Positions 16,300 to 59,400 of a DNA stretch of 64,000 bases are shown piece after piece. The notes beneath the pieces were generated by a model. The model saw only the letters and a list, made by a program, of their open reading frames with translations. It was not told the origin of the DNA and ran no database searches. The stretch spans positions 84,632,001 through 84,696,000 of the forward strand of contig NC_058368.1 in NCBI RefSeq assembly GCF_018350175.1, in the 5' to 3' direction. A program made the position numbers and the translations under genes. Every line of letters starts with the position of its first letter. Position 1 is the first letter of the stretch. The stretch comes from Felis catus (lineage: Eukaryota).

Positions 16300-18960
16300 T
16301 TCCATATTATATATATTCATATATAGAGCGTTAATATTTTCAGAGCACTTACATGAGGAAGCATTGTTTCTCTTCAACCACATGAAAATACTACATGTGC
16401 CATAATAAAATTTTAGAAAACAATCACATCAGCAGTCACACATACATCATGATTTTACATTTCAATACCTAACAAAGAAATATATACATCTTCCCAGCAC
16501 TATATTTCCCCATAAACACTGCCTATTTCCAGTCTAGCACATGTTTTCTAACTTGCTTGTAGAAACTACAGCTCTTAATCTCTAACAGCAGATATTTTGG
16601 AAGTTCCATTCTTTCCAGATTCAAATTTAAATGAGGAACTTGCCATTTTCAAATAACAACCAATTTTTTTAATGGGTATGGTGAAGCTTATCCAGCACAA
16701 TGTGAAGAAATATTGCATGTAAGTAAAAATCATTAAAGCTATCATAAGGAATCTTTACATTATAGTTGAGAACACTTAAAAATAAAGCTGCAATTGAAGT
16801 TTTATAAAGCAACTATTTATATTAAAATTATAGGTGTTCAACAAATCTGATGAAAAGACTGATTTGTGGGGTTCCTGGGTAGGTCAGTTGTTTAAGCGTC
16901 CAGCTTCAGCTCAGGTCATAATCTCATGGTTTGTGAATTTGAGACCCATGTACAGCTCTGTGCTGACAGCTCAGAGCCTGGAGCCTGGTTCAGATTCTGT
17001 GTCTTCCTCTCTCTCTGCTCCTTCCCTGATCACACTGTATCTTTCTCGGTCTCTCAAAAATAAATAAACATTTAAAAATTAAAAAAAATAAAATAAACTG
17101 ATTTGGTAAAGGTTCAAAGAATTTCACACCTCACTACTGTATGGCTCCAGCTGCAATGGGCCACAGTGATGACATACCGCATGTTCTGACATAGGCAGTA
17201 GGTCTCAATAGGCCATGCACTCCCCTTATGTCATATTACCTATTACAGACCAGTGAATTCTTAGAGACGAAAAATATAAAAATTTCAGGACACTGCATTT
17301 TAATAACATACAGCATCAGAAATTGTTCAGAAGAAGGTCTGAAAAGAGTCTTTTAATGCAAGCCTGAATCTTCAAGCACATAAATGTATTTCTTATGCTT
17401 GATTTCAACATCACTGGAAATAGATACCAATCACCAATCCCTGATATACATTCTTAATGAGACCCAGAATCCTTGTTCAAGTTTTCCTACAAGGGCTGCT
17501 CCATTCACAGTGGACATTCTGTTTCTGTCTCCCTTTGTTAACACCTGCAGGTGTGAGTATAAGAATCTGTAGAATGTTTGACAGGGAAAAGAATCTGTAG
17601 AATGTTTGACAGGGAAATATTACCCATGATGCTATCTGCATCATTCACTACCAGCAGCCCATGCACCTCAGCCCACCATATGCTGTCCAGGATATCTCCT
17701 GTATCTCCAGATTACTGCACCTCACAACACCCATGAAATGCTGTGAGAAGTGCTGATGGGTCTGGGCCACTGTGATATCTAGGTTAGGGTATGTTTTTTC
17801 AGCAGCAAGATTAATTACATCAGATTTAGAGTAAATATCTACAACTTTTCATGACTCATGCAACATAAGCAAGCCTGATACTTGTTTACACAAAGGTTCA
17901 AGGCTCCACTGAAGGGAGTGTCTGGGTGGATAAAGGCGATGTTGCAGTGGGTCCCAAATGCAAGAGCATCTAGGTCCCGCTTCATGAAAGCAGACTTTGG
18001 AATATCAGAGACACAAACCTGAGGAACTTGAGGATTCTTTTGTGGTTAAGTATATGAAGTGCATTCCACTTACCGGATCAACAATTGGCAATGTGTGGAT
18101 TTTCATTTTTGATCAAGTATACAACATGAAAGAGGCTTGCATCTGAAGCTGTATTCACTGAAGGTAAATGTTTCTTGTAAATAAACTCCCTCCAAGTTTC
18201 TGTCCTATGTTCCTCTAATTCATAAAATGTACCATGATGGATAGTATCTACTGGTGTATTTATGAATTCTAATTGTTAGCATTCCTACAAGATTTTGTTC
18301 TGAACTCTCCCACAGTGATGCTGCTGGAACACCATTGGCTTCTAAGATAAAGAAGGCCTTTCTAACTTATCATGCACTACCAGAGACACCAAGTTTTGAA
18401 CTGGTTTGACTGATGTGGTAACACTTATGTGACCTCATGAATCTCCTGTAAACACACTTTCTGAGTCTTGTGCCTCTTCTTCTAACTGGAATTTTTCAGT
18501 GTGCCAGTTTCCTGGTCCATGGAGATACGGGGTTATGGAAGGGAGTGGAGGGTACCAGAGAGGGTTTGTGGGCACATGGGTGCGTGGGGGATACCAACCA
18601 GACCAGGGATGAGGTGGGACCAGTGGGACATGAGGGTGTGCAGGGAGAAATGGAGCTGTGGTGGAGAGGGGATATGGGGGTGTGGGAGTATAGATAAGGG
18701 AAGTGGGAGTGTGGGGAGGAGGAATGGGGAGGAGTGGGAATGGGGGAAGGGGAGACTCGAGAGTACAATGGGGACATGCAGGTGGGCGGTGCAGAGATGC
18801 AAGGGTGCAGGAGGGAGGAGAAGGTGGGAGTGGGATTGTGAGAGACTTGGGGGTGCTGCACAAGGTAAGTGGGGTCAGCAGTGTCTGGGACAGTGCAGGA
18901 GTGCAAGTGGGATGCATGGGGTGCTGGTGCCCAGGTTATCAAGGCTGAGGGGAATGTGAA
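16300..18960 (-). pseudogene. PRKAG2: Processed pseudogene of AMPK gamma-2 (CDS remnant ~18502-17514, 3'UTR to ~16300, putative 5'UTR to ~18960)
   Basis: With frameshifts the minus strand reads [135 protein letters not shown]-like end. This matches the recalled PRKAG2 CBS region, without introns. The downstream sequence matches the recalled 3'UTR (gtattgaaatgtaaaatcatgatgt; gtaagtgctctgaaaat). Confidence 0.93.
16867..17095 (+). mobile_element. Can-SINE inserted in the PRKAG2 retrocopy 3'UTR
   Basis: ggggttcctgggtaggtcag head; actgatttg on both flanks. Confidence 0.92.
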
Positions 18961-20129
18961 CCATGTGCTTGTCAGCTCCTTGACACAGAAAGAAATCCAG
19001 TAGTTCGCCTCCATTTGGGGAGGTTCTAGAGGTGGATACTTTACCTTCTGGTTGCTTTTTTCAACTGCAGCTTCTTATCTGTGTCTCAGGGCAGACAAAT
19101 CTACTTACAGCTCTCCAGAACTATCCCTCCGCACTGAGGTTAGCATGCTGAGGGTGGGATCCCCTGTGTTATTGGGTCTCTGTCTCTCTTGCCTCTCTCT
19201 GTGCTGTATCTGCATCTTACCTTGTGCTGAATCTATTTGGAGGGCCCTCACCTCCTCTTCAGGAGGAACTCCTCCATAAATAGATGTAAATGTGGTGTGT
19301 CCATGGAGGAAGTGAGTTTACCTCCTCACCTTAGATTAGGTGAGTTAGGTCCCCATCTTGGACCCCGACTCATCTTTATAAACTTGCTCGAGCTATTTCA
19401 CTTGTTAGTATCATCTTCCTGTCTGTGAAATAGACCTTTTTTTTTTTGATGATCTAATAAGATTACATTTCTAAGGTTACTGGCACACAGCAAGTACTTA
19501 TTAAATGTTTCTTCTTCCTCTTGTCCAACATTGTGCCTTCCAAAACAAACATGACCCTTGTTTTTGCAGATACAAATTGCTCCTCCCACCCTCAATGTGT
19601 GAAATTTCTGAGCAGAGTTTGAGAAAACCCACCCTCCTCCTAGGCTTGGCACCTCAGGTCACCACAGGTCACCTTGACAACTTTACCCATACCACTTTCT
19701 TGCTTTCTCTCCATCTAGTCAACTGAACTGTGAAAATGACTTACTCCAGCCTCCTCTATCAACCCTCCTCCTTGGAAGGAAGCTAACTTCAGAATCCATC
19801 AAGGTTCATTCATAACTTAGCAGCCAAGATTAATACTGAGAGTTGGAAAGTCTTCCCAAGGTTTTTAGAAACCCACTGCTAATGGTTTGATTTTGGAGAA
19901 AATGTCAGTAGAGGGCCTATGTGGAAGTTTGAAGTTGAGAACTGTAGGCTTAACAAAGCTATAATATGGATTATGAGCATCACAGACTGAGGAGAGTTTC
20001 CATCAAATCTTGCAGCAGGAATCAGATGTGAAATGGACAAGGACAAAAGGGCATAATATTTGTTATGTGCCCACAGTGTAAGCCTCAGGGTAAGGATAAG
20101 GGAATTGATATAGGACTTTTCCGTTAACC

Positions 20130-21239: not shown

Positions 21240-23490
21240 ATCTTAGGGCCAAGTTTTGTCACAAACTGTTTGTGAGGTCTCAGGTCAGAAATTGTCTATG
21301 CAGAAATACCTGTGTGCAGACATTCTGTTTCCAATTTCCTTTCTATCAGAATGGCACTCACCTCAGCAGCTGTCCTTGAGTTCTAGAGGAGTCAACATGT
21401 GTAATAAATTTGACTACGATGGGCAGGTTGTGCTGAGTGTTACCTCCCTGTAGTATCCTTTCTCAGAGCCATGGAGACCCTTGCTCACTCTCTGGAGAAT
21501 GCAGTGAGTAGTGTGGTGCAGCGGTGACTATGATCCTGAGCTGTGCATTACAAATACCAGAAACTCTTCATTTGCATTCCAACACATCTATTTAAAACTG
21601 GTAGACACCCTGAATGTCATGCCACTCCCATTCCAGAAGCTAAATCACACACCACCACAGCTTTCCTTCTATGTCCTCCTGGGGTAAGCATGTGTCATTA
21701 CCTCTGTCCTTTGAAAATGTGGCCTGGAAGTCAAAAATTCCAAGGAAGCACTGAATTTGGAAAAAGAATCTCTGAAGCTCAGGGACATAAGCCTGGCCCT
21801 GACATCCCCACCTCCAGTTTGGATGACCTCTCCTTAGACTGAAGGAGCTCAGCCTGTGACTCCTCTGCTCTCAGGTCCTGGGTCTCCTCCCTTTCTACCA
21901 GCCCCTGTCTCATGTTGGGCCATGTCCAGGGAGCCCTGGCCCTCTGGCAAGGTCTTTCAATGTTGTCCTTCAGGTACACAAAATTAAAAAGCAGATTTTA
22001 CATACTTTGATGTTCTTTTACACACACTGTGAGGGAATTCTTTAGCTTAGACTTTTTTGGAGATTTATCACTGTGCCTGCCTGTGTTAAAAGCCATTTGT
22101 ATAAATGTGAGCTTTGTACCCAATTCTCCCAAAGCTGTATCTATGGCTTTCATTCCCAAAGACAGCTTCCCAGATGCAGGTCTTTCTCTTGTCCTTAGTC
22201 ATGGCAGAGAGAACTCCCCAAAAGATAAACTCTCCCCAAGTGATATGTTACCAGGCCATCAGACTGAAGTTGGCCTCAGGCCTGCAGGTCAGAGACTCAC
22301 CAACACCTGGGCACAGAGATCCAATGTGTGTACTGAAATTTGAATAGCTGAAAGCACCAGCTGAGTCTTGGCATCCAGCCATGAATCACTGACATGTGGG
22401 AGTAAACCCCCAACAGATGGAACAACCTCTACTTCCACAGGGGACCCTACACCTTACCCTCTACTGGAGGGAGGATTTGTGCCTGAGCAATAGCCTCAAA
22501 TTCCTCATGTCTGGGTACACATGCCCCACCTTTCTGGGTTTGGGTTGTTCTTCCTGCTGTGTCCTGACCTTCCATGTGCCTTACAGAGTCACAGATCGTG
22601 TTAGGGTGGAAGGGGCCCTGGGTCCAGTTTGCCCATTTCTGACAATGGGGGCACCACCTGGGGGCCAAGAACGTGTTCATGGCCAGGGCTATTAGGAGGC
22701 AGTGGGAGGTTTCTGAGGCCCCTGTCCTCACTGCCTGCAACTTCTGGGCTCACGTTCATGGAAGGCAGCATGGGATGGGTGGGGACTGGTAGCAGACTCC
22801 TCCAGCCAGCTCCCCTGGAACAGCCAGTGATACTGAATTGCACAGGCAGAGAACAGCTCTGAGAACAGTGAAGGAAAGCCTGGGGCTGGACCCTCACTGT
22901 GCATGTGGGTGAGTCTTAGAGGGTGAGGGACGGGTAGGCAGCTGGCTTTACTGTGTGCAGTGTCTGCAGGGGCACAGAGGTGCAGGTGCCTCTCCGTGTA
23001 CACAATAAGCTTCCCTTTGCTGAGCATGGAGTGTGTTGTGAAAACCATACAATTAGAAAAGGGATGTGGGCTTGTTTCATGAATCTCTGAGGGCAGGTTG
23101 GGGGCTGTCCCTTGCTGACTGTGTGGTAAGGAACCATTGGCATGGGAGGGGCAATGTAACCCTGTCTCTCTACACTGGGAGTCTTGAGTGCCTGGATTTT
23201 ATAATGGCCTTCTGCCCCTAACATTAGTTACAGCACCATGCGGCTCTCAGCATGGGCTCGCTTACAGGACCAACCACCAGATGGCTGTCCCCTTCATTTT
23301 CTGAACAATCAGCAGGTGGCTCTCAGCTGTGGTCTCACTAAATTCTTCAATCATTAAGCAGATCGACCAGCCATTCATCAGACAGGTTGCTGGGCCAATC
23401 ACCAGGAAACTCTCTGCGTTTTCTAACTCAAATGGCCAATCACAAAGCAGCTCTCACAATGGTGTCACTCCTGTGTCCAATCACCAGGCA
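21240..23490 (-). pseudogene. Cassette A: decayed paralog of the unidentified intronless gene, with shared downstream flank
   Basis: Shares tttcctttctatcagaatg (21335 vs 30424) and gagaactccccaaaaga (22209 vs 31147) with B. Minus-strand ttataaaatccaggcactcaagac (from 23204) resembles ttataaaagccagtcaagac (44454). (V)RVQPQAFL at 22897 resembles MTLQPQLFL in C. Confidence 0.6.
23197..23490. promoter_or_regulatory. Phased CCAAT-box array plus minus-strand TATA box
   Basis: CCAATCA at 23395, 23436 and 23477; variants at 23270, 23305 and 23347; TTATAAAA on the minus strand at 23197-23204. Confidence 0.6.
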
Positions 23491-25260: not shown

Positions 25261-28200
25261 GTGAAAAGTGTACCTAAATTTCTGGTGTGATACCAGAGTG
25301 AAGTGGACACAATGGGCCTGGAGGTGGGTGAGGTGGTGGCCCCTGCTGAGGACTGTGCTGGCCCTGGGTCAGTGTGGAGGTCCCAGGAATCAGCTGGATG
25401 GAAATTCAGGTGCCCATGTTCCATCCTGTCACAGGGAATGACCCACTCTGGAGGTGGGGGACGTGCTTTCAGGTGCTGCTGATGGGAGCCAAGGACTGAG
25501 ACATGCTGGCAAGGACCTAGTGGGTGGACGGGCCACAGCAGTGAGTGAGGCTCAGTCATACCAAGCTCCTTCATTTACCTGAAGGGGACTCTGGGGACTC
25601 CCATCTCCTGCCCCTGTTCCTCAGATGCAGAAAGACACTGATGTGGAGACCCATGTGCAGGAGGACGTGAGGCGTCAGGTGAGCACTCTGGCACCTGCAG
25701 ACCAGGAGGTCCCCTGGAGCTAACTATCAATTCCATGCCTGCCCCTTCCTGGTGAGGACAGGCCCACCAACCCACAGCCTGCCTCTTCCCTGCTGTCACA
25801 CCTCAACGGAAGGTGAATCAGTGGCCAGGTGATGATGTTATTTGTTGTTCACCCACACAGATTTCAAGATATTGATACATGAAGAGTATTTAGGTGACAC
25901 CACTTGTGTGTCCGCAGGACAGAGTCTGGTGTGCAGCATCCCAGACATGCCTGGGGGCCTGGTGACCTTGGTCTGCTGTGTGTCCAGACATAGACCAGCA
26001 GGGAGGCGGGCAGGGCACTCTTTCCTTTTCACTGTTAGGCTGTGCATGTAAACAATCAAGCTCTGGGTGAAAGGCCGCTATCTGGGCCAGCATCACAGAA
26101 ATTGTCCCTGCATCCTGGAGAACACAAATTCTGTGTGATCTCAGTGCAGTGTGTCCCCTAGATGACCTCCAGGGGGGATGCATGGGGTAATCAGACCTTC
26201 TGGGTCCTATGTCAGAAGGTTGTACCCTGGTCATAAAATGACAATTTAACATGTCAGGATGTTTCACTGCTGCTGCCAAGATTGTTTACATTAATAACTT
26301 GTTTGTTCTGGAAAAGTAAACTGAAGCTACATGCACAAAATCACTACATTACAGAGACAACAAAGGGGGAAGGAAAGCATGAATATCAAGAAATCCAGCT
26401 AATTCTGACTTAGCATCGGGCCACCTGCTCCCTCTGCTCACTGAACCTACAAGATAACCCCAGGTGAAGTTTTTGCTCTTGAAGGTGTCAGGAGAAAGGG
26501 ACTGGATTTTCATTCAACAGTTCATTCTGGAGACCTCAGTCCAAGGAGATCTGGTGCTTCATGCCAGCAGCACACGACTGACTGTGAGGAAGAGACAAGA
26601 CCTCAAGCTAAGGATCCCAAATTCATGGTGCTCCTCCACACTTCTTCTCCTCATCCATGTGTGGGTGTGGTGGGGTTACAATTCTGAAAGCTCAGATCTG
26701 TTAGTGCCCAGAAGGATCCAGTGTTCCCCAGAGCCCTGGTCATGGCCAGAAACCTTTCGTCTGAGGATGGAGGCTCCATACTGGTGGACAGTTCGAGAGC
26801 TGTCACCACACCCCATCTCCAAATCCTATGTCCTATTATTTCCTTTGGCCCCACCCCTGACTGCACTGAGGGAGGGTTCTAGGTCCTGGCGCTGATGCTG
26901 ATGGTGCTGGGAGTCCCACAGGGTACAATCTGGGTCTGTTAGGGGGTGTGTAGGTGGAGGAGGGATGAGGGCTCAGGGGCCAACCTGGCTCAGGTTCATG
27001 TAGGTGGAGGACTGAGTGGACAACCTGGCTCTGGGTGTATGAACCTCTGATGTTGTCTCTCAGTGTTGCTGAGATCCCTTTCTCCAATAAGAAGACTTAT
27101 CAGGGGCCAGAGGCTACAGTCCAGATGTCACTATGTGAGCAGGTACTCTTTCCAGGAAGGTCTTCACCCACAGATGGTAAAGCCACCTGACCTCAGCCCC
27201 ACTGAGGCTTGAAGAGTCACAGGCATCCAAGACTTTTCCTAAATGATTACATGGTTGAAGAAACATGGGAACAGAGATGGTTACAGTCAGGGAAAACTTA
27301 CCTTATATGATAAAGGGCACTGGAATAGTTAAAATACCTACCTGTTCTTTACAAAAGGTGAGAAGCCAGTTAACCTGCCATTCTACCTACCTTTGTCCAA
27401 GCTCTTGTTATGCCCAGTGGCTTGTGTTGAAGGAACCAGTAAGCCTGGGACTTGGGTACATGCCAGCTCATGGAGTGTCCTGTCTGAATGCAGACTTCTC
27501 CAGGCACATCCTGTGTCTGCAGTGCCCTCACAGTGGTGCTGGTTGGAAGAACTACTTCCCCAGTGGCCTCCAAGTACACCTGCAAAACAAGCCAGACGCT
27601 ATGTCTTGTATGGTCACAATCTTCTGCAGAGTTATGGGCATAAATTACTCCTGCATCACCCAGGCCAGACAGCCAAGGCTCAGGGTGTCCTGGGGATGAC
27701 CTACCTGGGAGGCACGTCTGCCACTGAACCACTAAATGGCCTTAGTGAGTCATTATGCAGAGTAGTCCATGAAGCACTCTACAGGAGCCCAGGATGCAGA
27801 AGTTTGAGGTTGGACACTGAACCCAAAGAGGGACACAAGGGCACCATTGGTCACCTCATCCCACCTGCAGCCCTGAGGAGAAGGGTTGAGAGATGCCCAT
27901 GGGGAGTGCATACTTGATGCCTGTTTGAAGCACCCAGAGTCTGAAATGTTCCCAACAGTTATGGCCATGGACCTTTCAGAGCTGTGGCTTTAGTCCCCAA
28001 CTCCCTACCATGGTCCTGTCCTGAAGCTCCATCTGCCCTGTGGTCTCGTCTCCATTTGAATTTAATGCATGGTTTACCAAACAACAAATCATGCTGACTC
28101 TGGGTTCAGGGAAGTACTCTATCCTGTTCACCAGGACAATTCTTTAGGGAAAAGGCACTTAATAAAGATTTGGAGTCAGTGGGGACTCGGATGAACAGCT

Positions 28201-29319
28201 ACTGTTTAGATATTACACCATATCACATAGAACTAGATTGAATTAGACTGTATCTTTCTATGTGGCTTGACCTAAAGAACAATGTATTCATTAGTGCAAA
28301 ATACCAGCAGGCACTTACCCACTGGGTAAGGGTTCAATCCCTGTGCTCATGGAGGTAATGTTCTGGGAGAAAGAACACAGTGAAGTGAGGCAATCACAAT
28401 GAGTCCTGGGGCCAGAGTGTTAGCTCAGGGGATGGATTGAGAAGGCGATGGACTAGTTTGTCAAGGGAGACTTTCTCCTAAGGGTTCCTAAAGTAATGCT
28501 GAAGGGACCAGGCACATGGAGATTCACCCTCACAGTACCCGGGGAATTGCTGCAGTTGTGCCTGGATCAGCCCCTCCAGTCCTCCACCATGCAGTCCAGT
28601 CCTCCCACTGCTGCCACACTGAGGAGCACAGCATGAACAAGCTGACTCATCTTCAGTTTCCCTGTGTGGAATTTAAATGCCTGACTTTGAGAAGTGGTTA
28701 TGGACATCACTTCCATTTCAGGAAACCCACTCTTGCAGGAAAGTGTTAGTGTTAAGTGTGACAAAAAAAAAAGTTTCCCAAAGATATGTTTTACTTAGAC
28801 CATAATGAATGGACTCTCCCATTTGAGGGGCCAGACTGATGGACTGTATGGGGAGGTGTTCTGGTAGAGACATGCTTGTGTTGAAATGACTTGGAGGTAC
28901 AAGGATATTCCCTTCAATCTAATTGGAGTGATCTGAAAAGTCAACTTATTCCAGCCATTCTGTGTCACTGTGGAGATGATGGCTCTGTCTAAAGAGAATA
29001 AGAGGTAACCTGTCAGGAAACAAGCACCTGAGGCTTAGAGCTCAGAGATGGCTGGACCAGGGATGGGCATGGTCCTGGATGTATGTATGAAGGGAGAACA
29101 ACTCTTTAGACCCCTGGTTCTTAAGTCAGTGGTGAGAGGTCCACATCCCTAGGTGGTGCCAAGGTGGATGTCAGAGGACCCCACACCTGCTTCAGGTTCA
29201 TGCAGAGAGAGGGAGAGACTGGCCTTTGTGCTTCCAGGTGAGCTGACCACCAGGCTATTCTCCATTTGTGACTCCATGTGGTGGTGATGTCATTCCCAAG
29301 CAGACATTTGTGAAGGTTG

Positions 29320-32300
29320 GGTATAAAGGAGTGTGTCCCATAACACACAAGTCAGCACACCAGCTCAGAGCTCCCCCCACTCCTGACCTGATCCCTATCA
29401 GGAGGTCCTGGGGGATGGTACTTAGGCTGAGGACACATATAAGTGGGGCCACCTTGATTTAAGTTTTGACAAATCCGAAGACCCACAACAATCTTTTCAG
29501 TAAACCCTTCCTTACCTACTTCCTTCAGTGTAAACTAAACCTCTCCATGCTGTCAACACACAGTACACACTTCCCAGCCTCCCCACTGGCTCTTGAAATC
29601 AGCAATCTTCTTACCATCTTAGACATCATCCATCTTAGAGATTCCAGCCTCTCTCTTCCCAAGTCCACCTCAAATTTATCTTTTCCCAAAGAGCCAGGTT
29701 CTTCTTCTCACTTCTTCCCAGGTTCTATAAGCACACTTCCTTGAGCTCCATAGAGAGATTATGACGCTATGCTCTCCTCCACCTTGGCTGCAGCCACAGG
29801 CAAGCCCTAGCTCATTGGATCCTACAAGGGGCCTGAGCTCCCATGTAGTCCCTGGATGTGAAAGGGGCCATCTCCAGGAACAAGCAGTACCTCAAACCTT
29901 ACTTTCCACCTTCTTTCTGTCCCATTCATGACTGATTCTCATCTCTGCCTTTTAGAAGAGTCCAACTTCTTCCATATCTTCAGACTACCTCTAGTAGTCT
30001 GCCTTACTTTATCCAGCTTCTCTGCCTTACTTTATCCTGCTACCCCTCCACCTGGATCCACCAGTAGGAATGTGGATGTCTCCCCCAAATCCTGCAGTGC
30101 TTCTGTGGCTCAGCGAAGAAAGCCCACCCTTTATGTGACTTCCTCTAGCCTCTAACTGCTTGCCTTACCCCACAGCATCTCATCCAGAGACAGGGTTTGG
30201 TCTCTGGAATCTCTCTGCCCTGGTTGCCTAGTTGTCTTGTCACATTTGATCTTAGAAGGTCTGCATCAGACAGGAACCTATAGTCAGGAAATATCTGCTG
30301 TGGTGGCCAGAGTTTGGAAACTTCACATCAAGGTCCAACCTCAAGTTTAGCAACAATCTGCCAGGAGGTCTCAGCCTAGAAATGTTTTATGCAGAAATAC
30401 CTGTACAGACATACTGCTTCTCTTTTCCTTTCTATCAGAATGTCAACTTCAGGTGGTGTTGGGCTCTAGAAGTCAATGTATTGGGAAATATTGATGGGGA
30501 CAAGCAGGTTGTGCTCAGTGCTCAGTGTCAGCTCCCTGTAGTTCACTGACACTTTTTCAGATCCATGGAGACCTCCTCACGCAATCAGGAAAATGGTGAT
30601 TATTCATAAGATGTGTTCATAACTACAAGCTGAACTGCACATCAGTATCACCGAGGGGTTGTTTTTCCTAAATTAATTATTCAGAAATGATCATTCAAAA
30701 TTATTTTTTAACGCTCATATAAATTGTAAACTCATATCATGCCCCCAGTCATGGAGATGACCCCACGTTTCCCTGCTTCCATTTTATGACATCTTGGGTG
30801 GGTGAGTGCAGAGACATCACCTCTTAGACAACATCTCCTGGAAGGGAAAAGCTTCCAGAAAGTCCATAGTGTATGCAAAGAATCTCTCCACCTTATGGAG
30901 CTGAAGCTGTCTCTCTCCCCACTGCTTGGCCTGTTCTTCTAGGGCTTCCACCTCTCCCTCCAGGTGGGAACACCTCTCCTTTATCTGGAGGACCTCAACC
31001 AATTACTCCTCTGTACCCAGGGCCTGAGTCTCCTCTGCAAATTCCTCCCATCCCCCATCCTTATGTCTGGAAGTGAGTTTTAATAAAAAGTCTTTGAACC
31101 ACTTGTCTTTCTCTTCTTTGATTGAATGGTGTTGTTTTCTTGTGAGGAGAACTCCCCAAAAGAGAAAGGTTGCACAGGTGACAGTCCACAAGGACCTCTT
31201 GCTGAAGTCCATCTCAGACCAGTGGGAACTCAGTTGCCCTGTTTCTTCCTGTGTTGAAGGTTTCCCAGTTGACTTGGTGTCCTGGAGACTTGTTTGCCCA
31301 GTATAAAGCTGGGTTAGAGGAGTCATTACCAAAGAGCTCCCCATAGACCTAGTATTCTGTACATCCGATTGTCCTATAATGTGCTGGGTGGCAGGGGTTT
31401 TGTTCTGAAGCCACCTGGCTAGCCTGTTGTCTGGGGAGATTCTATTCCAGCATTGGGATGTGGTAATTATGGTCCACGGGCTCCAAGTTTGTCTGGTGTT
31501 CTCACAACTAGGTTTCCAGGTCTCTGCTGGCTTGGAGGTCTCCCATCAGAGGGCATATGGTAAGTCTGGTGTCTGAGTTGTCCATGTGTCATGGAGATGT
31601 CATGGTCTCAGGGATTCCAGTGGGCCTGGTATTATGGGGACTTGGTTGCTCCATTCTCTGCTAAATTAGAAGGCTCCTCCGATTTGTCTCAGATTCCAGG
31701 TGACTTCTTTTCTTGCTGCAGAGTTGGATTGGAGGACTTATGCTCCTAAGGTTCCTGGTCATCCTGTTGTCCAGATAACACATTTGTCCAGTGCTGAGCT
31801 TGGCTAGTAGGCTTGTTATGTAAGGGTTCCCAGTAAGCCCAATGTCTGAGGGACTCATTTGCCCAGTGCCAAGCTTGGTTGCAGAGGTTTGGGTCAATGT
31901 ACTCCTGGAAGTCTTGGTATTCTTGGGACTTGATGGCCTTATTCTCTGCTGGGTTGGGGAGCTTGTTGTCTGAGGGCTCCTGCACTGTCCAATGTCCTGG
32001 AAACTCATCTGCTCAGTGCCAGATGGGGTTGGAGGTCTCCCAGCCTGAGGTCAACCGTTTTCTGGGGAAACTGCCCTGTGCTCTGTTGGTCAGGCCTTTT
32101 GATAAGAGGGCTTCTGGTCAGCCTGGTATCCAGGGGATTCTTGTGTACAGTGCTCAGCTCTTTTGGTAGGCTTGTGGTTTGAGGGCTCCTGGTGGGTGTA
32201 GTGTTCTGGGGACTCGATGACCCTGTGCTCTGCTTGGTTGAAAGGCTCATGAGCTGAGGGCTCCTTGTCAGCACAGTATACAGATGACTCCTTTTTCAAG

Positions 32301-32875
32301 TGCTGAGCTGGGTACAAGGACATGGGCCGAAGGATTCCAGTTGGTCTGGTGTTGTGAGGACCCAATAGCATTATTCTCTTCTGGGAAAGAGAACTCCAAG
32401 TTAGAGAACTCCCACTCACCATGTCTAGGGGTCTCCTTTGTCAGTGTCCATCTGGGTTGGAAGGCTCATGGTTTTCAGGTTCCTCCCAAGCCTGGTATTC
32501 TTGGACTTGGCTGCCTTCTGATCTTCTTGTTTGGAGGGCTACTGTTCAGAGGAATGTCCCTCAGCCTGGTGCCCAGGGTCTTCACTTGCACATTGCCCAG
32601 CTGGGTTGGAGGTCTCAGGTGTCCCAGAAGGCCTGGTGTTCTGGGCACTCAATTTTCCTGTCCTTTGTTGAATTTGAGGGCTCCCACTTAGCCCACTGTC
32701 TGGGTGATTCTTTTTCCCAGTGCAGACATGGGTTGCATTTCTTATGCTCTTAAGGCTCCTAATGGCTCCATTGTCCAGGTGTCATGTTTGTCCGGTGCTA
32801 ACCTTGGTTGCAGGGGTTTGGCAAGAGTGCTGCTGGTAAGCCTGGTGTGTGGGCACTCAATTGCCCTATGATTCA
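29320..32875 (-). pseudogene. Cassette B: disabled gene body with a 75-bp coding-type repeat plus downstream flank; 5' end cut by L1
   Basis: Minus-strand peptides repeat every ~25 aa (EPSNHKPTKRAEHCTQESPGYQADQ; EPLHNKPTSQAQHWTNVLSGQQDDQ; WHWANES) with in-frame stops; inverted homology to 44500-46800. Confidence 0.7.
31345..32875 (-). repeat. Diverged ~75-bp tandem repeat, about 21 units
   Basis: Equivalent gcctggt...ggact motifs at ~31763, 31838, 31912, 31988, 32121, 32196, 32270, 32345, 32420, 32490, 32564, 32631 and 32840. Confidence 0.85.
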
Positions 32876-34265
32876 CTGGAAGTCATAGATACAGAAATTA
32901 GGAAACCAAAAGAAAGAAAAGGCATCCAAATTGTTAAGGAAGAATGAAAACTTTCACTATTTGCAGATGACATGATACTCTATAGATAAAACCCTAAACA
33001 CTCTACCAAAAAATACTAAATCTGATAAATGAATTCAATAAATTTCAGGATAATGAATGAATGTTCAGAAATCTGTTGCATTTCTATCCATTACTAATGA
33101 AATAGCAGAAAGAAAAACTAAGAAAACAATGCCACTTGCAATTGCACCAAAAATAATAAGATGCTTAAGAATAAACCTAACCAAAGGGGTGAAAGGGCAT
33201 TGAGGAGGGCACCTGTTGGGATGAGCACTGGGTGTTGTATGGAAACGAATTTGACAATAAATTATATTTAATATAAAAATAATCAACGTGAATATGAAAG
33301 ATCATACTCATCCAAAGTAAAAAAAAAAAAAGGAAAAGAATAAGAATACAAAGTTGCAAATAAAATTTTAGATAGAAATAAGAATTTACTTAGAATAACA
33401 AAGAAATTATAACAAATTACAAATTTAACAAAGTTTCCAAATACTATAAACATTAAAAAATTCAGAAAAATATAATGTTTTTATTAAATAACTACCTGTC
33501 AAGTTTCCATATTTTTTCTGTTTTTTGCTTGCCTATTCTTTGATTGCTTTTTACGTGACAATGCTTTTCTGTTACCCTGTGCAAAGAGAGAATAAAAAGA
33601 GAATTCAGTCTTTCCTCCAGAAAAAAAATATACTCTGAAATCTACAAAATATGGATGAAAGAAATTGAAGATGACACAAAGAAATTATAAGCCATTCAAT
33701 ATTCATGGATAGGAATAACAAATATTAATAAAATGTATCTACTACCCCAAGCAATCCACAAATCCATGCCATATCTATCAAAATACCACCAGCACTTTTC
33801 ACAGAACTAGAGAAAACAATCCTAAAATTTATATGGAACCTCAATAGAGCAAGAATATCGAATGCAATCTTAAAAACTAAAAACTGGAGGCATCACAATT
33901 CTGGACTTCAAGTTACATTACAAAAGTGTCATAAACAATACAATATGATGACATCATAGAAACAGACATATAGATCAGTGGAATGGAAAGAAAACTCAGA
34001 GATAAACCCACAGTTATATGGTCAATTATTCTTGGACAAATCAAGAAAGAACGAACAATGGGAAAAAAATCTCTTCAGCAACTAGTATTGGGAAAACTGG
34101 AAAGCAACATGCAGAAGAATGAAACTGGAGCACTTTGTTACAGCATACAAAAAAGTAAATTCAAAATGAATGAAAGACCTAAAGATGAGACCTGAAGTCA
34201 TCAAAATCTTAGAGAACAGAGGCAGTAACCTCTTTGACATTGGTTGTAGCAACTTCTCATCAATG
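32876..34265 (+). mobile_element. LINE-1 ORF2 fragment (RT FADDM region onward)
   Basis: ctttcactatttgcagatgacatgatactc; GINLTK-like and later ORF2 motifs; interrupted at 33195-33628. Confidence 0.92.
33195..33628 (+). mobile_element. Short young L1 3' end with probable 3'-transduced sequence
   Basis: 33195-33270 matches 8398-8470, followed by non-L1 DNA, AATAAA at 33591 and A8 at 33621-33628; host L1 then resumes. Confidence 0.65.
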
Positions 34266-36379: not shown

Positions 36380-37496
36380 TCAGACATGCCACTTGATGTG
36401 TATCAGGAGTTTTATTGTGTGTACTGATAGTTGTGTTCACTACACTAGTGTATATACCAGCATGTGTACTTATGTCTGCCACTGTGTGTGCTAATGTGTT
36501 CTAGGTGTACCAGTGTGTACTAGTGTGTATAATAGCATATGTACTACAGTATGTGCTAGTATGTGTACTAGGTGTGCCAGTGAGTGTACAGCTAATGCTA
36601 GGGTGCGCTCATGTGCATATTAGCATGTGTATTTGTGTGTGCTTGTGTGTGTACTAGTATGTATGTTCAGTGTGCCAGTAAGTGTACAACTAATCCTAGT
36701 GTGTCATAATGTGTATACTAACATGTGATATGTGTGTGTGCTAATGTGTTGTAGGTGTGCCAGTGTGCACTTGTGTGTATACCAGTATATGTACTAGAGT
36801 GTGTGATAGTATGTGCACTAAGTGTGCCAATGAGTGTACAACTAGCACTAGTGCACACTCATGTGTATATAGCAAGTGTACTTGTGTCTGCTATTGTAGT
36901 TGCTTGTATGTGTACTAGGTGTGCCAGTGAGTGTAGAAATAATGCTGGAGTGTGCTCTTGTTTATACTAACGTGTACTTGCATATGCTTGTGTGTGTGCT
37001 AATAGTTGTACTCGTGTGAAATAATATTTGGGAACTAGCATGTGTACAAGTGTGTATGAGTGTATATGAGATGTGCTAATATATGCTAGTATGTACTAGT
37101 GTGTGTACTAGTAAATGACAGTGTATATACTAGCGTGCACTAGTATTAACATATATACTAGTGTGTGATAGTGTGTAATAGGTTTACAACTCTGTGTGCT
37201 AGCTAGCATGTGTTCTAGCTGTGTGTTAGTACTTGTGCTACATTGAGCATAGCTTGTGTGCTGCAGTGTATTAGTGCGTAGTAGTATGTACTGGACATAC
37301 TATTGTGTGTACTGACATAGCAGTTTTATACTAGCGTGTACTCATGTGTTTACTAGCCATTTACTTGTATTTGTGCTAATATGAGTACTAATTTGTGTGC
37401 TATTGTATCCTAGTGAGTAGTAGAGTGTGCTAGACATGATGCTGTGGTCTACTGTGTGTCCTAAATGTGTACTAATGTACACCCCTGTGTACACTA

Positions 37497-37536
<40 letters not shown>

Positions 37537-37565
37537 ACGCTAGTGTGTGCTAGGTGTGTGCACTA
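36380..37565. repeat. Complex degenerate TG/CTAG-rich simple repeat with higher-order units
   Basis: Recurrent gtgtgtactag and gtgtgccagtgagtgtaca; ends in a pure (TG)n at ~37504-37533. Confidence 0.9.
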
Positions 37566-37569
37566 GGAA

Positions 37570-37886
37570 GAATAATGGAGGATTGCATCACAAATGACAT
37601 CATGGCAACATCCCAAGCAGTATGCCTTGGGAATACATGATGTCATAGAGGACCAGCCAATCAGAATCCTCCCCAGCCTGTGGTCCTCTGGTGGGTGGCG
37701 GTGGTTGGGAGTGAAGGCAGAGTTTGAAGCAGGAGTTTCCAGGGTACCCACAGTCCTGGACCTAGGAACCTCCCCACAGTGGGCGTGCAGCATAGCTCCT
37801 GAAGTTCCACCCCCTGGAGTCCCTCCCTCCCACATCTCCTCAGATATCCTGTCACCTGAGCCTGCAGTTATCTACTTCAGGTGAGT
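37570..37886 (+). promoter_or_regulatory. Putative promoter and first exon (CRE-like, X-box-like, CCAAT, splice donor)
   Basis: tgacatca~37595, catggcaac~37601, tgatgtca~37638, gccaatcag~37656; CAG|GTGAGT at 37880/37881. Confidence 0.4.
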
Positions 37887-44329: not shown

Positions 44330-44465
44330 TGTCAGGAAGGCCAATGAGCCTTCAGTGATTGGCCAGCTGAACAAGGCCAACCTGAGGGAGCCCTGGTGAT
44401 TTTCCAGGCATGGTTGTGACATCACTAAAAGGCATTGTGACACACCAGTGCTGTTATAAAAGCCA
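44330..44465 (+). promoter_or_regulatory. Promoter of cassette C
   Basis: CCAAT at 44341, ATTGG at 44358, TGACATCA at 44417-44424, TATAAAA at 44455-44461, ATG 35 bp after the TATA box. Confidence 0.65.
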
Positions 44466-44495
44466 GTCAAGACCCAGGTGGTACTGAGGAGAGTC

Positions 44496-44960
44496 ATGAC
44501 ACTTCAGCCACAACTGTTCCTGCCATTCCTCCTGTTGTTTGCCTGGGTTGTCTTCCCCTGTTGATGGCAAACCCATTGCCCACTATGAGCCTTCAAACTA
44601 TAAGCCCTCCATCTCAGCTTAGCATTGGACAGAAAACTCACTGGGAAACCAGCCTGAACTGGTAGCTCTTTGACTGGGAGCCCTCCAACTCAGCAGACAA
44701 GTAAGCAATTGATTTCCCAGGACAACAGGCCCACTAAGAGCATTGTGAGACCAGGCCTTCTGTTCTAGTTTGGCACTGGGCCAATGAGTCCCCTGGACAG
44801 TGTGCTGACCAGGAGAGTTTCCACCAAAATTTCTGCATGCCAGTAGAGCACAGGACAACTGAGTCCTTATCACCCAGGATTGACTTCAGCCTTAAGTCCT
44901 TTTGGCCTGTCACCTGAATTTTTCCTCTTTCAGGGAGTTCTCCTCAGAATAAAACAATAC
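44496..44960 (+). pseudogene. Cassette C: intronless pseudogene with signal-peptide-like start and ~4 repeat units
   Basis: MTLQPQLFLPFLLLFAWVVFP, frameshift (TGA at 44562), VDGKPIAHYEPSNYKPSISA*HWTENSLGNQ...WEPSNSADK*AIDFPGQQAH...WHWANESPGQCADQE; AATAAA at 44948-44953. Confidence 0.7.
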
Positions 44961-45975
44961 CAGGCCCTAAAAGATGAGACAAACCAGTAATTTGAAGACT
45001 TTGTATTAAACTTCACGACAGGAGAAGAGGGGGTTGGGAGGAATTTGTAGAGGCGACCCAGGCCCTTAGCACAGAGGGGTCACTGTCTGAGGTCCTCCAG
45101 ATTAAAGCGAGGTGCTTCCACCTGGAGGGAGAGGTGCAGACCTTAGAACAGGTGTAGTAGTGGGGTGACAGGAAGACTCAGCTCCATGAAGTGCAGAGAT
45201 TAATTGTGCACACAAAGGACTTCCTGGAAGATTTTGCTTCCTAGGCAATATTGTCCAAGGGGTAACGTATTCCCACCCACCAAAGATGGCATAAAAGGGG
45301 GGCTGAGAAAAGTGTGATCATCTCCAGAAGTGGGGGCATTGCATGAGTTTACAATTTACATGAATTTTAAATAAATAATTTAAGGTGATCATTTCAGAAT
45401 AATTAAGAGAAACAATCCGTGGGTTATTGTAATGCACATCCCAGGTTGCAGGCAATATTGCATCTTATGACTCATCATATTGTCATGGTGGTGGATAGGG
45501 GTCTCTACAGCTCTGAGAATGTGTCATTGAACTATAGAGAGCTGACACTGAGTACAATCTGCCTGTATGCATCAACACTTTCTCAAACATTGACTTATAG
45601 AACTCAAGGACAGCTGCTGAGGTCAGCACATTCTGATAGAAAGTAAAAAGCAGTATGAGAGCAAATGTGACAAGAGCAGAGAACCAGGATGGAGGGAGGC
45701 CAGAGGCATTGTACCATTCCCTGTCTCTGTTTGAGAGTGTGTGGTATCAGTGTGGTAGGCAAAGAAAGAGGTGCGAGGAGCTATGATGGTGGGCTTTGTT
45801 CTGACCAAGGAAGCAATTCAGTTATTGGGAGGGACATGTGGGATTCAAATTGGGTCTTTAAGGGTTTGGGAGGCAGAGTAAGGCAGAGAGTGAGAGAGGT
45901 GGGAACAGGTGTGCCTTGGAGACTGTAGGGTGTGCATGGGCATGAAGGAAAGTGGCTACTCTCAAGAACAGAGTT

Positions 45976-50785: not shown

Positions 50786-51239
50786 ATGAGCTAAAGTTGT
50801 ACTACAACAAACTAGAAAAAGGAAAAGCAAAATAAGCCCAAGCTAAGCAGGAGGAAGGAAAAAATAAAAATGAGAAGACATCAAGGAAACTAAAACAAGA
50901 ACTTCTTTCCATCTGCTCATATGCTTTTCTTTGTATGAGTGCATGACCTGAGAGCATGTGCTCTCTGTTGCCTCCATCTTCTTCATCCCCTGGCGACCTC
51001 CGTTAGGATCCTCACAGAGAGCGCCGCCCCCCCCCCCCAATCTAGCCTATATCCCAGACCACCCTGCCCCTCTCCTGTGCACACACACTGGTGGCATCAG
51101 GATGCTACAGTAAATGTGATTGCTTCTTCTATCTATAGTTCCCCCACCCCCAGAATGTGACCTCTGAGGGCACAGGGACTGAACTCCTCAATCTAGTCCA
51201 TGCAGAATAGGTATTTTGCCCTAACAGATGCATTGTTCT

Positions 51240-51600
51240 TTAGGGCAGGCCACATTTAAAGAAACAAAGCCAATTTAGTACTATGCAGTATAGAGTTGTA
51301 GTTGAACAGGAGCTATCCATCCAGGTTCTTTCTTTAAACCGTATTAAGTGCCTGTGCCACAAAGCACTGTCCCAGTGAACAGGACAGTGTATTTCCCAGG
51401 ACACAGTGTGCTCCTTCTCCATTGTTGGGTGAACCATGCATTGAATCCCTATGGAGATAACCAATTCCTGGACATATGGGAGTGGGCATGAATTCACAGC
51501 TCCCAGAGGACCTGTTTCCAGAGGCACCGTTATCTTTGTAGTGCAGTTCAAATACCTTATACCATGTTTATAAGGTCCTACCTGGTGGGACTCCCATTTG
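51240..51600 (-). mobile_element. Possible ERVL-like protease-region fragment
   Basis: KITVPLETGPLGAV...VQELVISIGI loosely resembles the recalled ERVL motif VRLTVGPVGP...PECIIGID. Confidence 0.3.
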
Positions 51601-52164: not shown

Positions 52165-52817
52165 GTGGTCTCTCCATGAGCACTACAGCATCCTCCAGGA
52201 CATCAGCAGCAGCCCTAGCACCTCCTGGTTGTCAGGGTTTAAACATAAGTACATACAGTACATCTTCCATTTTTTTTTTATCATCCTAGGAGTTCTGTTT
52301 GTCTCTTGATAGTAACTGCATCTTCTATAGTGCTGCTTCTTCTACTGTGACCCAGAGATATCTACTGCATGTCAGTAAATATGGCTCACTTTCCTCCATG
52401 AGCTCTATCAACAGGGGACTCCTCATTTTGACATTACCCAGGGATGTTTTCTTTATAGGAGTCATGCTGTTGTCAAGTGAATACATGGCGATTCTCTTGC
52501 CCATTCATCAGAGGCAGTACCAGCACCTTCACAGTACCAGCCCCTCCTCAAGAGTCTCCACAGAGAGAAGGGCCACGCAGACTGTCCTGTTGGTGAGTTT
52601 CTCTGTGGTCATATACTGGGTGGACGTCATCATCTCATTCTCTTCATGTTTGCTACGGGGATATTATCCAGTCATCCTGGATTTTCAGAAGCTTGTGTCC
52701 AATGTGTATGCCACTGTCAATGCATTGGTGGTAATTTGTCCTGATAAAAAGATAAAAATGTGCTTCAAAAGTGTGGAAAAATTTCAACCAATGTATAACT
52801 ACATATTCATGAAATAG
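52165..52817 (+). pseudogene. Vomeronasal type-1 receptor (V1R) pseudogene, 5'-truncated
   Basis: V1R motifs: GLSMSTT, SPSTSWLSGFKHK, RDVFFIGVMLLSSEYMAILL..HQRQYQHLHSTSPSSRVSTERRATQTVLLVSFSVVIYWVD, NVYATVNALV; frameshifts present; TM1-3 missing. Confidence 0.92.
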
Positions 52818-56460: not shown

Positions 56461-59400
56461 AAACCAGCCCTGCAAGAAATTTTAAGGGGGAACTCTCTGA
56501 GGGGAAAAAAGATGAAAAAAAAATATATATATATATATATACCAAAAGCAAAAATATATTAGAAAGGACCAGAGAACAACACCAGAAACTCCAACTCTAC
56601 AAGCATCATGATGGCAATAAATTCATATCTTTCAGTACTCACTCTAAATGTCAATGGACTCAATGCTCCAATCAAGAGACGTAGGGTAACAGAATGGATA
56701 AGAAAACAAGACCTATCTATATGCTGTTTACAAAAGACCCACTTTAGACCTAAAGACACCTACAAATTGAAAATAAGGGGATGGAGAACAATCTATCATA
56801 CTAATGGTCAACAAAAGAAAGCCGGAGTAGCCATACTTATATCAGACAACCTAGACTTTAAAATAAAAACTGTATCAAGAGATGCAGAGGGACATTATAT
56901 CATAATCAAGGGGTCTATCCACCAAGAAGACCTAACCATTGTAAACATTTATGCGCCAAATGTGGCAGTACCCACATATATAAATCAAGTAATCACAAAC
57001 ATAAAGAAACTCATCGATAGTAATACCATAATAGTAGGAGACTTCAACACCCCACTCACAGCAATGGACAGATCATCTAATAAAAAAATCAGCAAGAAAA
57101 CAAGGGCTTTGAATGACACACTGGGCCAGATGGACTTAAAATATATACTCAGAACATTTCATCCTAAATCAGCAGAACATAAATTTTTCTCCAGTGCACA
57201 TGGAACGTTCTCCAGAATAGAGCATATACTGGGGCACTAATCAGCCCTAAGTAAGTTCAAAAAGATTGAGATCAAACCGTGCATATTTTCAGACCACAAT
57301 GCTATGCAACTCAAAATGAACCACAAGAAAAAATTTGGAAAGGTAACAAATATTTGGAGACTGAAGAACATCCTACTAAAGAATGAATGGGCTAACCAAG
57401 AAGTTAAAGAGGAAATTTAAAAATATATGGAAGTCAATGAAAATGATAACACCACAACCCAAAACCTCTGATATGTGGCAAAGGTGGTCATAAAAGGAAA
57501 GCATATATCAATCCAGGCCTTCCCAAAGAAAGAAGAAAGATCTCAGATTCACAACCTAACTTTATGCCTTAAGGAGCTGGAAAAAGAACAGCAAATAAAA
57601 CCCAAAACCAGCAGGAGACAGGAAATAATAAAGATTAGAGCAGAAATTAATGCTATCAAAACCCCCAAAACAGTGGAAGAGATCAATGAAACCAGAAGAT
57701 GGTTCTTTGAAAGAATTATCAAAATTGATAAACAACCACTAGCCAGTTTGATCAAAAAGAAAAAAAGGAAAGGACCCAAATAAAATCAAGAATGAAGGAA
57801 GACAGATCACAACCAACACAGCAGAAATAAAAACAAGAGAATATTATGAGCAATTACATGCCAATAAAATGGGCATTCTGGAAGAAATGGACAAATTCCT
57901 AGAAAGAAATACACTACCAAAACTGAAACAGGAAAAAATAGAAATTTGAACAGACCAATAACCAATAATGAAATCGAATGAGTAATCAAAAATCTGCCAA
58001 AAAACAAGAGTCCAGGGCCAGATGGCCTCCAGAGGAATTGTACCAAACATTTAAGGAAGAGTTAACACATATTCTCTTGAAACTGTTCCAAAAAAATAGA
58101 AATGGAAGGAAAACATCCAAACTCTTTCTATGAAGCCAGCATTACCTTGATTCCAAAACCAGAGACCTCACTAATAACAAGAACTATAGACCAATTTCCC
58201 TGATGAACATGGATGCAAAAATCCTGAAGATATTAGTCAACCAGATCCAATAATACATTAAAAAAATATTCACCACAACCAAGTGGGATTTATACCTGGG
58301 ATGCAGGCCTGGTTCAATATCCACAAAACAATTAACGTGATTCATCACATCAATAAAAGAAAGGAAAAGAACCTTATGATCCTCTCAATAGATGCAGAGA
58401 AAGCATTTGACAAAATACAGCATCCTTTCTTGATAAAAAACCTCAAGAAAGTAGGGATAGAAGGAGCATACCTCGAGATCATAAAAGCCATATATGAGCG
58501 ATCCAACACTAATATCATCCTCAATGGGGAAAAACTGAGAGCTTCCCCCCTAAGGTCAGGAACAAGATGGGATGGCCACTCTTGCCACTGTTATTCAACA
58601 TAGTATTGGAAGTCATAGCCTCTGCTATCAGACAACACAAAGAAATAAAAGGCATCCAAATCAGCCAAGAGGAGGTCAAATTTTCACTCTTCGCAGATTA
58701 CATGATAGTCTAAATGGAAAACCCAAAAGATTCCAGCAAAAAACTTCTAGGACTGATTCATGAATTCAGCAAAGTTGCAGGATATAAGATCATTGCACAG
58801 AAACCGGTTGCATTCCCATACACCAACAATGAGGTGACAGAAAGAGAAATCAAGAAATTGATCCCATTTACAGTTGCACTAAAAACCATAAAGTACCTAG
58901 GAATAAATCTAACCAAAGAGGTGAAAAATCTATACACTGAAAACTATAGAAAGATTATGAAAGAATTTGAAGAAGACACAAAGAAATGGAAAAAGATTTC
59001 ATGCTCCTGGATAGGAAGAACAAATATTGTTAAAATGTCAGTACTACCCAAAGCACTCTACATATTCAATGCAATCCCTATCAAAATAACACCAGCATTC
59101 TTCACAGAGCTAGAACAAAGAATCCTAAAATTTGTATGGAACGAGAAAAGACCCCAAATAGCCAAAGCAATCTTGAAAAAGAAAACCAAAACAGGAGGCA
59201 TCACAAGCCCAGACTTTAGCCTCTACTACAAAGCTGTAATCATCAAGACAGCATGGTACTGGCACAAGAACAGACAGATCAATGGAACAGAATAGAGAAC
59301 CCAGAAATGGACCCACAAACGTATGGGTAGCTAATCTTTGACAAAGCAGGAAAGAATATCCAATGGAATAAAGACAGTCTCTTCAGCAAGTGGTGCTGAG

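Follow-up and report, generated by a model that had tools for sequence, protein, structure and literature searches.

A diverged 75-bp tandem repeat in the cat genome raises the question of whether it once encoded protein and, if so, in which frame and as part of what. We addressed this within a 64-kb stretch of DNA, called the window here, which is rich in L1 pieces and tRNA-derived SINEs. The window holds three copies of the same family, A, B, and C, all of them broken and lying near a V1R fragment (Table 1); the repeat belongs to copy B. Our answer is that the array is very probably the portion of a pseudogene that encoded its repeats; this pseudogene would belong to a small mammalian family, as yet unnamed, whose members combine repeats, one transmembrane helix, and a helical tail of about 105 residues.

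RESULTS

Period, extent, and make-up of the array

The predicted period of about 75 bp was confirmed: within 31345 to 32875, identity at lag 75 was 0.372, against a mean of 0.263 (standard deviation, 0.018) for lags 1 to 399. Circular profile alignment found 24 diverged units rather than the roughly 21 that had been counted. The array had been placed at 31345 to 32875, but the units continue for about 140 bp past that lower limit, to about 31203. Mean pairwise identity among the units was 54%. It was higher at even lags (0.545 to 0.584) than at odd lags (0.509 to 0.532), which indicates a 150-bp dimer in which two subtypes alternate. Both the peptide phase that was first read and its second subtype are legible in the array. 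Tandem Repeats Finder, which had been suggested for checking the period, does not report the copy B array because its units share so little identity.

We searched the window with the unit profile at an E value of at most 3 and obtained 30 matches: 24 in copy B, 5 at 44578 to 44898, and 1 weak stray. Thus, 29 of the 30 fall in copies B and C, and none lies within the window's L1 pieces. Unit number differs among family members, with 24 in copy B, 4 to 5 in copy C, none detected in copy A, and a length equivalent to at least 8 to 9 units in the open relative P0028. We inferred 18 indels within the array, all of them deletions, and 11 of the 18 shift the frame, so the spacing is not cleanly the codon multiple that had been proposed. 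Codon multiples made up 7 of the 11 deletions of at least 3 nt (p = 0.039), an excess that is gone when all 18 are counted (7 of 18; p = 0.39). At its 5' end, the array is truncated by a plus-strand L1 ORF2 fragment, with the junction at 32877. We found no promoter or start remnant resembling that of copy C beyond the L1 fragments.

Table 1. Features of the locus, with positions in the window
Feature	Position	Strand	Remarks
3' flank	30342..30816	-	Common to copies A and C and to locus L001 of what appears to be another mammal (about 70% identity)
Helical, coiled-coil-like C-terminal tail	30817..31137	-	Final stop 30819-30817, matching position in copy C and P0028
Premature tail stop	31003..31005	-	Seen again in DNA run X20; shared end point of proteins P0001 and P0017 (96% identical)
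Open stretch of 172 codons in one frame	31006..31521	-	Last units, transmembrane-like segment, and first tail helix; first in-frame ATG 31344
Transmembrane-like segment, then basic residues	31138..31194	-	Weak hydropathy in copy B (best 19-residue mean, 1.22)
Copy B repeat array	31203..32880	-	24 units, alternating subtypes; probable former 25-residue Ser/Thr/Pro-rich repeat domain
Broken 5' part of array	31522..32880	-	11 frame-shifting deletions (two maybe one in-frame 15-nt deletion) and 5 coding-phase stops
L1 ORF2 fragments and other inserts	32877..34250	+	Abut the array at its 5' end
Copy C, inverted paralog	44340..45660	+	CCAAT 44341, TATAAA 44455, ATG 44496, final stop 45263-45265, AATAAA 45370
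Copy A, most decayed paralog	21250..23450 (approximate)	-	Shares CCAAT region, part of tail, and 3' flank
V1R fragment	52290..52817		PF03402, E = 1e-30

The coding frame of the repeats

Sequence comparison indicates that the array is a former coding sequence and that its coding phase is Ser/Thr/Pro-rich, one base off the His/Trp/Glu/Gln phase in which it was first read. In-register stops occupied 5 of 544 codons in the coding phase of copy B, 14 of 549 in the His/Trp/Glu/Gln phase, and 37 of 546 in the third phase, and the three antisense phases held 16 to 20 each. With copies B and C pooled, the coding phase had 7 stops, whereas a null in which the majority unit changes neutrally predicted 21.9 ± 4.6. 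Neither stop null is perfect: the column-resampling null gave a depletion of only p = 0.048 for the coding phase, and one antisense phase was also depleted (26 versus 42.5).

Substitution patterns did not separate the phases. Third-position bias, for which a check had been proposed, was absent in every phase (unit column identities by codon position, 0.518, 0.559, and 0.515; permutation p = 0.27). Inside the repeat, dN/dS was 0.70 in the coding phase versus 0.74 in the His/Trp/Glu/Gln phase, with no signal of selection at the codon level. We assigned the frame because of homology to open proteins and not from substitution patterns. P0028, an open protein of 353 aa, aligns to 31521 to 30853 in a single frame (37% over 238 aa; E = 1.8e-33), and P0024, open over 248 aa, aligns in that same frame to 31434 to 30787 (38% over 222 aa; E = 1.3e-37). 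A profile built on the Ser/Thr phase matched seven stretches in P0028, the first five of them in 25-residue register, four in P0040, and two in P0024; the best of these scored 8.5 bits, which is low, and the distal repeats of P0028 reached merely 0.5 to 2 bits each against the felid profile. The profile of the His/Trp/Glu/Gln phase found one or two stretches per protein among the open relatives, at best 4.2 bits. In copy B, the coding phase passes without a change of frame into a transmembrane-like segment and then into the helical tail.

We consider it extremely improbable that the His/Trp/Glu/Gln phase coded for a secreted transglutaminase-substrate or metal-binding repeat protein. That phase is depleted of stops against both nulls in copies B and C (20 versus 34.4, or about 35) and keeps an open run of 116 codons at 32093 to 32440. 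In copy C it leads into the beginning of the transmembrane segment, a junction that a 1-nt deletion alone would create; a 2-nt deletion soon afterward returns the Ser/Thr phase to frame within the segment. However, it carries nearly three times the stops of the neighboring phase, in copy B it is out of frame with the conserved segment and tail, and it has neither a Pfam family nor a usable Atlas feature match. All three long open relatives (P0024, P0028, and P0040) use the other phase. Open relatives do exist, but they do not read as the original prediction supposed; its His/Trp/Glu pattern, and its stops at positions of Gln codons, are by-products of reading out of frame. Its former repetitive domain of about 500 aa survives as a decayed coding domain of 500 to 600 residues with a 25-residue unit; the frame, and hence the protein, does not.

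Over its 544 codons, the coding phase of the array is rich in Thr, Ser, Leu, and Pro, with 48 Gln and 26 Lys (S+T, 28%; S+T+P, 37.5%). A purely secreted Gln/Lys/His repeat protein is at odds with the transmembrane-like segment and helical tail, and the suggested transglutaminase or metal-binding function is unsupported by a Thr/Ser-rich frame with a membrane segment. Involucrin, semenogelin, and trappin are transglutaminase-substrate repeat proteins. They resemble this locus in having one large exon of short tandem repeats and fast turnover, but the coding frame here is Thr/Ser-rich, not Gln/Lys-rich, and closes with a transmembrane segment followed by a coiled coil.

Absence of third-position bias, a dN/dS of about 0.7, frame-shifting lengths for 11 of 18 indels, and an abutting L1 fragment would also fit a noncoding minisatellite or transposon-UTR repeat that merely sits beside a short coding exon. 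We regard this reading as highly improbable, since open proteins can be aligned in frame to the final units, the unit-profile matches concentrate in copies B and C and avoid the L1 pieces, and the open relatives themselves have a period of 25 or 50 residues.

The domain downstream of the array

Repeat, segment, and tail share one frame in copy B and in the open relatives. Two other readings of the domain at 30817 to 31200, as an LTR and as a separately spliced exon, were dropped because open proteins carry this domain and the repeats in one frame. The hydropathy of the relatives and a helix in an AlphaFold2 model point to a single transmembrane-like helix C-terminal to the repeats. The best 19-residue Kyte-Doolittle mean was 1.22 in the felid segment, which is weak, versus 1.68 to 1.93 in open relatives. 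Right after the segment, 2 to 3 basic residues occur in all 4 proteins inspected; 0 to 2 occur ahead of it. The frame ends about 105 residues past the segment in copies B and C, P0028, and P0024.

AlphaFold2 run on an 18-sequence alignment predicted three helices (19 to 69, 74 to 85, and 89 to 145) with a mean pLDDT of 78. A full-length model built from 3 sequences had low confidence (pLDDT, 35) and is uninformative about disorder. Foldseek gave no match for the domain. VIA-align returned generic long helices only (best Z, 6.6; none at 8), a result that shows neither kinship nor novelty, and the PDB sequence search gave only short coiled coils (best E = 0.0016). In Pfam, the family alignment and full proteins had only subthreshold coiled-coil matches, and among 125 frames of the window only V1R and the L1 endonuclease exceeded the cutoffs. 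No SEA, EGF-like, or VWD family was matched by 6 proteins at an E value of at most 10 or by the array in three frames. The Atlas yielded no usable feature match for either query, and we discounted its structure matches, which are based on a model with a pLDDT of 0.25.

Open relatives in other genomes

The relatives P0024, P0025/P0028/P0033, and P0040, together with 20-odd shorter fragments, are automatic open reading frame calls on unannotated Logan/ENA contigs. A single-sequence search with the felid domain found no longer relative among 372 candidates. A three-sequence profile found 16 short proteins at an E value of at most 0.001 among 1.84 billion representatives; two of them, P0001 and P0002, are frames of this locus itself and are not independent evidence. 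A 17-sequence profile added two proteins among the best 8,000 candidates, P0024 and P0025 (326 aa; the longest members of its cluster reach 353 aa), both of which share 48% identity with the felid domain. A later profile search found 15 proteins, including P0040, among the best 8,000 candidates. The other aligned relatives were 35 to 56% identical to the felid domain, with one at 32%. Two candidates were rejected: L002 is a chance coiled-coil match, and P0020 is unrelated despite being listed in the cluster of P0004. A search of viral contigs gave 376 pattern matches with no relative among them.

P0028 is an open protein with the same segment and tail as copy B, preceded by repeats with internal periods of 50 and 25 residues (S+T, 25%; S+T+P, 36%). 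The repeats of the relatives contain Cys and Trp and differ from the felid ones in consensus and unit number, and the open reading frame calls begin inside the repeats. P0028 and P0024 both remain open at a mutual identity of 65% over 234 aa, a combination that neutral decay would rarely allow. The metagenome contig L001 codes for the P0024 tail in an open frame, and it remains collinear with the downstream flank of copy C for 2.3 kb at 69 to 78% identity; for these reasons, it is probably host DNA from the corresponding locus of another mammal. We built a tree from 16 rows that were each 60 residues or longer; alignment A5 supplied 13 of its 18 rows, and 3 came from elsewhere. The two felid copies fell in one clade and P0024 and P0026 in another, with support of 100/99 under a midpoint root.

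None of the family members examined has a name or a precomputed Pfam domain, and no named relative appeared in the protein, profile, or Pfam searches; the label "uncharacterised" in curated mammalian (RefSeq) annotation is possible. We found no description of the family in the literature listings searched, and supplementary gene lists could hold its locus names.

Paralogs in the window

The original prediction had missed the nonrepetitive coding domain at 31200 to 30817 and the two paralogs in the window. Copy C has four full 75-bp units and a partial one, at 44578 to 44898, ahead of the shared domain, followed by the transmembrane-like segment and by a tail broken by 4 premature stops and another 2 frameshifts. 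Its stretch 44878 to 45657 is 73% identical over 813 bp to the region of copy B at 31200 to 30817, in inverted orientation, and both copies terminate at an equivalent position. The ATG of copy C opens a hydrophobic frame of 22 codons, and 22 of the 2,686 ATG sites in the window score as well. DNA around this ATG also matches residues 138 to 175 of P0028 in the neighboring frame (10 of 38 identical), which conflicts with reading it as a signal peptide. In copy A, the stretch paralogous to the downstream domain of copy B is 21250 to 21889, and the CCAAT-box region is common to copies A and C.

Decay, selection, and expression of copy B

We are confident that copy B is a pseudogene of this family. 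Its array carries 9 to 11 frameshifts and 5 stops, and its tail carries 1 stop. DNA run X20 is identical over 30200 to 32143 (4 contigs, no mismatches or gaps); thus, the breaks in that interval are not assembly errors, and 32147 to 32876 lies outside the coverage of X20. Between copies B and C, dN/dS over the segment and tail was 0.41 (bootstrap, 0.23 to 0.74; p = 0.03 to 0.11 versus neutral simulation), and the comparisons with L001 gave 0.63 and 0.76, no different from neutral.

We then weighed whether copy B is partly alive, either through a 113-residue product running from ATG 31344 to the stop at 31005 and including the transmembrane segment or through a 3' part that stayed under selection long after the array broke. 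Of about 16 lesions along the 683 codons, only 1 lies within the final 234 (p = 0.011 to 0.016, with the boundary chosen post hoc), and RNA run X12 contributes one contig of 322 nt at depth 3 over 30820 to 31141. However, the lesion-poor run is unremarkable once the choice of boundary is corrected for (p = 0.15 to 0.16), the X12 contig may be DNA, and copy B has no promoter or start remnant that we could find. We therefore judge a partly living copy B to be improbable. Four of 24 listed runs were compared with copy B. In two of them, raw RNA runs of which about 1 to 2% each was sampled, there were no reads on copy B, a result that does not amount to a test of expression.

DISCUSSION

We somewhat favor the view that the product of the family spanned the membrane once, between a stalk like that of a mucin and a cytosolic coiled-coil tail; it apparently came from one coding exon and would be expected to begin with a signal peptide. 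The repeats would face the outside or the lumen and form an extended, probably O-glycosylated stalk whose length would be set by unit number, and the tail would oligomerize or anchor the protein as a coiled coil. The overall principle would be that of a membrane-tethered mucin or spacer. Under the positive-inside rule, basic residues that follow a hydrophobic segment favor a cytosolic C terminus, and we place the tail in the cytosol because basic residues come after the segment.

The opposite, type II orientation would put the repeats in the cytosol and the coiled coil outside, giving a fast-evolving tether like tetherin (BST2). The signal peptide is unproven, the family shows repeated duplication and loss, and the tetherin ectodomain is about as long as the helical tail, all of which would suit such a protein. 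Against it stand the 2 to 3 basic residues just after the segment, against 0 to 2 ahead of it, in the four proteins, and C termini that on inspection are charged and lack a GPI-type hydrophobic end. Tetherin, in contrast, has a GPI signal after its extracellular coiled coil, and the proteins examined here had no passing Pfam match. We consider a type II protein quite unlikely.

Among known systems, the single-pass reading is closest in architecture to membrane-tethered mucins and single-exon sialomucins of the MUC20/21/22, CD43/SPN, and PSGL-1/SELPLG type. They too have a variable number of Ser/Thr/Pro-rich tandem repeats, specified by one exon and placed before a single transmembrane helix, and weak codon-level constraint in the repeats. 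However, S+T in this family is only 23 to 28%, under the roughly 40% often used as the threshold for a mucin domain, although decay dilutes the felid value. The tail is a helical domain of about 105 residues, not short or disordered, the repeats of the relatives have Cys and Trp, and neither a SEA, EGF, or VWD match nor sequence homology was found. We do not place the family among the MUC proteins, as several of the features that define membership are absent or ambiguous.

A further proposal, compatible with the single-pass reading, concerns the origin of the segment and tail. They may descend from a retrocopied gene of the TANGO1 (MIA3)/cTAGE5 (MIA2) group, an origin also possible for the testis gene SPZ1. 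The repeats would have taken the place of the lumenal part, and in that case the site of action would be ER or secretory membranes. No intron is apparent, as expected for a retrocopy. The first coiled coil of TANGO1/cTAGE5 proteins presumably has a spacing of Leu, Gln-Glu, Trp, and His similar to that of the felid tail. TANGO1 and cTAGE5 are single-pass proteins with a cytoplasmic coiled coil adjoining the membrane (PMC5851698), and the order of parts, type I with a coiled coil after the helix, matches that of this family, whose membrane side is assigned from charges only. However, no protein of the TANGO1/cTAGE5 group appeared in profile, Pfam, or PDB sequence searches, and coiled coils resemble one another by chance. 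The family has tandem repeats on its N-terminal side and has no second coiled coil, proline-rich domain, or SH3-like domain. On balance, this origin seems unlikely.

For the single-pass family, we envisage a history of local duplication, array expansion, and loss, in which copy B would have grown in unit number, been deprived of its 5' end next to an inserted L1, and then decayed. A role in the reproductive tract or germ cells is a tentative guess suggested by the single-exon birth-and-death pattern. More tentative still is the fullest version of our proposal: an undescribed mammalian family of single-pass proteins located by a V1R cluster, with a length-tunable stalk of 25-residue units and a coiled-coil tail, which would have multiplied and stayed intact in some lineages and disappeared from cats in three steps, would serve a lineage-specific reproductive or membrane-tethering role, and may owe its anchor and tail to a TANGO1/cTAGE5 retrocopy.

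As the locus illustrates, a coding repeat that has decayed can be persuasive even when it is read out of frame. The felid array is a fossil without demonstrable function, and its value is as a pointer to a fast-turnover family that is open in other mammals. If RefSeq lists uncharacterized loci for this family, the novelty would lie in its architecture and in its loss in cats. Families of this sort are often reproductive or immune genes overlooked by annotation, and P0028 is a ready candidate for expression, topology, and knockout studies.

Other features of the window

Several further features lie in the window around copy B, the decayed 75-bp-unit array with its transmembrane-like segment and tail.

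Coordinates of additional features in the window
Feature	Position	Strand	Details
Purine-rich stretch	18490-18940		GC skew 0.34 (bin 18001-19000)
Three CCAAT boxes (spacing ~42 bp) and two exon-like pieces	23390-23490, 25625-25678, 25861-25893	+
Inverted pair	28049-28305 and 51210-51457		71% identity across 257 bp
TG-rich tandem array	36480-37560		Periods 98 bp and ~250 bp
GC-richer stretch	37566-37880	+	CCAAT at 37657; strong donor CAG/GTGAGT at end
V1R fragment	52290-52817	+	PF03402 match, positions 133-291 of 292
Long broken L1	56563-60436	+	Endonuclease domain PF03372 at 56563-57237

Part of the three-CCAAT-box stretch is also found in the upstream region of copy C, a decayed paralog of copy B. 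The two small exon-like pieces are bounded by AG...GT. The boxes and pieces may be the remains of a spliced gene that has since decayed, or they may form a promoter that works in both directions. The GC-richer stretch looks like a first exon, which perhaps belongs to the V1R or to another gene. No N-terminal half of the V1R was found among the frames scanned with Pfam in the window. The surroundings of the fragment may be the equivalent of human 1q44/5q35. We also observed long open frames on both strands of the purine-rich stretch; a Pfam scan of these frames gave no match. The TG-rich array degenerates into TG runs, and the inverted pair is probably an interspersed repeat.

Relatives of copy B in the protein collection

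In the protein collection searched for relatives of the copy B family, P0020 (400 aa) was grouped in the 90% cluster of P0004 (55 aa). We rejected P0020 as a relative: despite the shared cluster it is unrelated, and its placement with P0004 is a clustering error of the collection. It resembles a bacterial RNA methyltransferase.

The open, unnamed 353-aa relative P0028, from another genome's contig, has two 25-residue repeat subtypes in alternation across residues 1 to 135. A Cys-Pro-Trp motif is present in these repeats, whereas the felid units, the diverged 75-bp repeats of copies B and C, lack it. With cysteine at 10 of 222 residues, disulfide or metal binding would be possible in the P0028 lineage.
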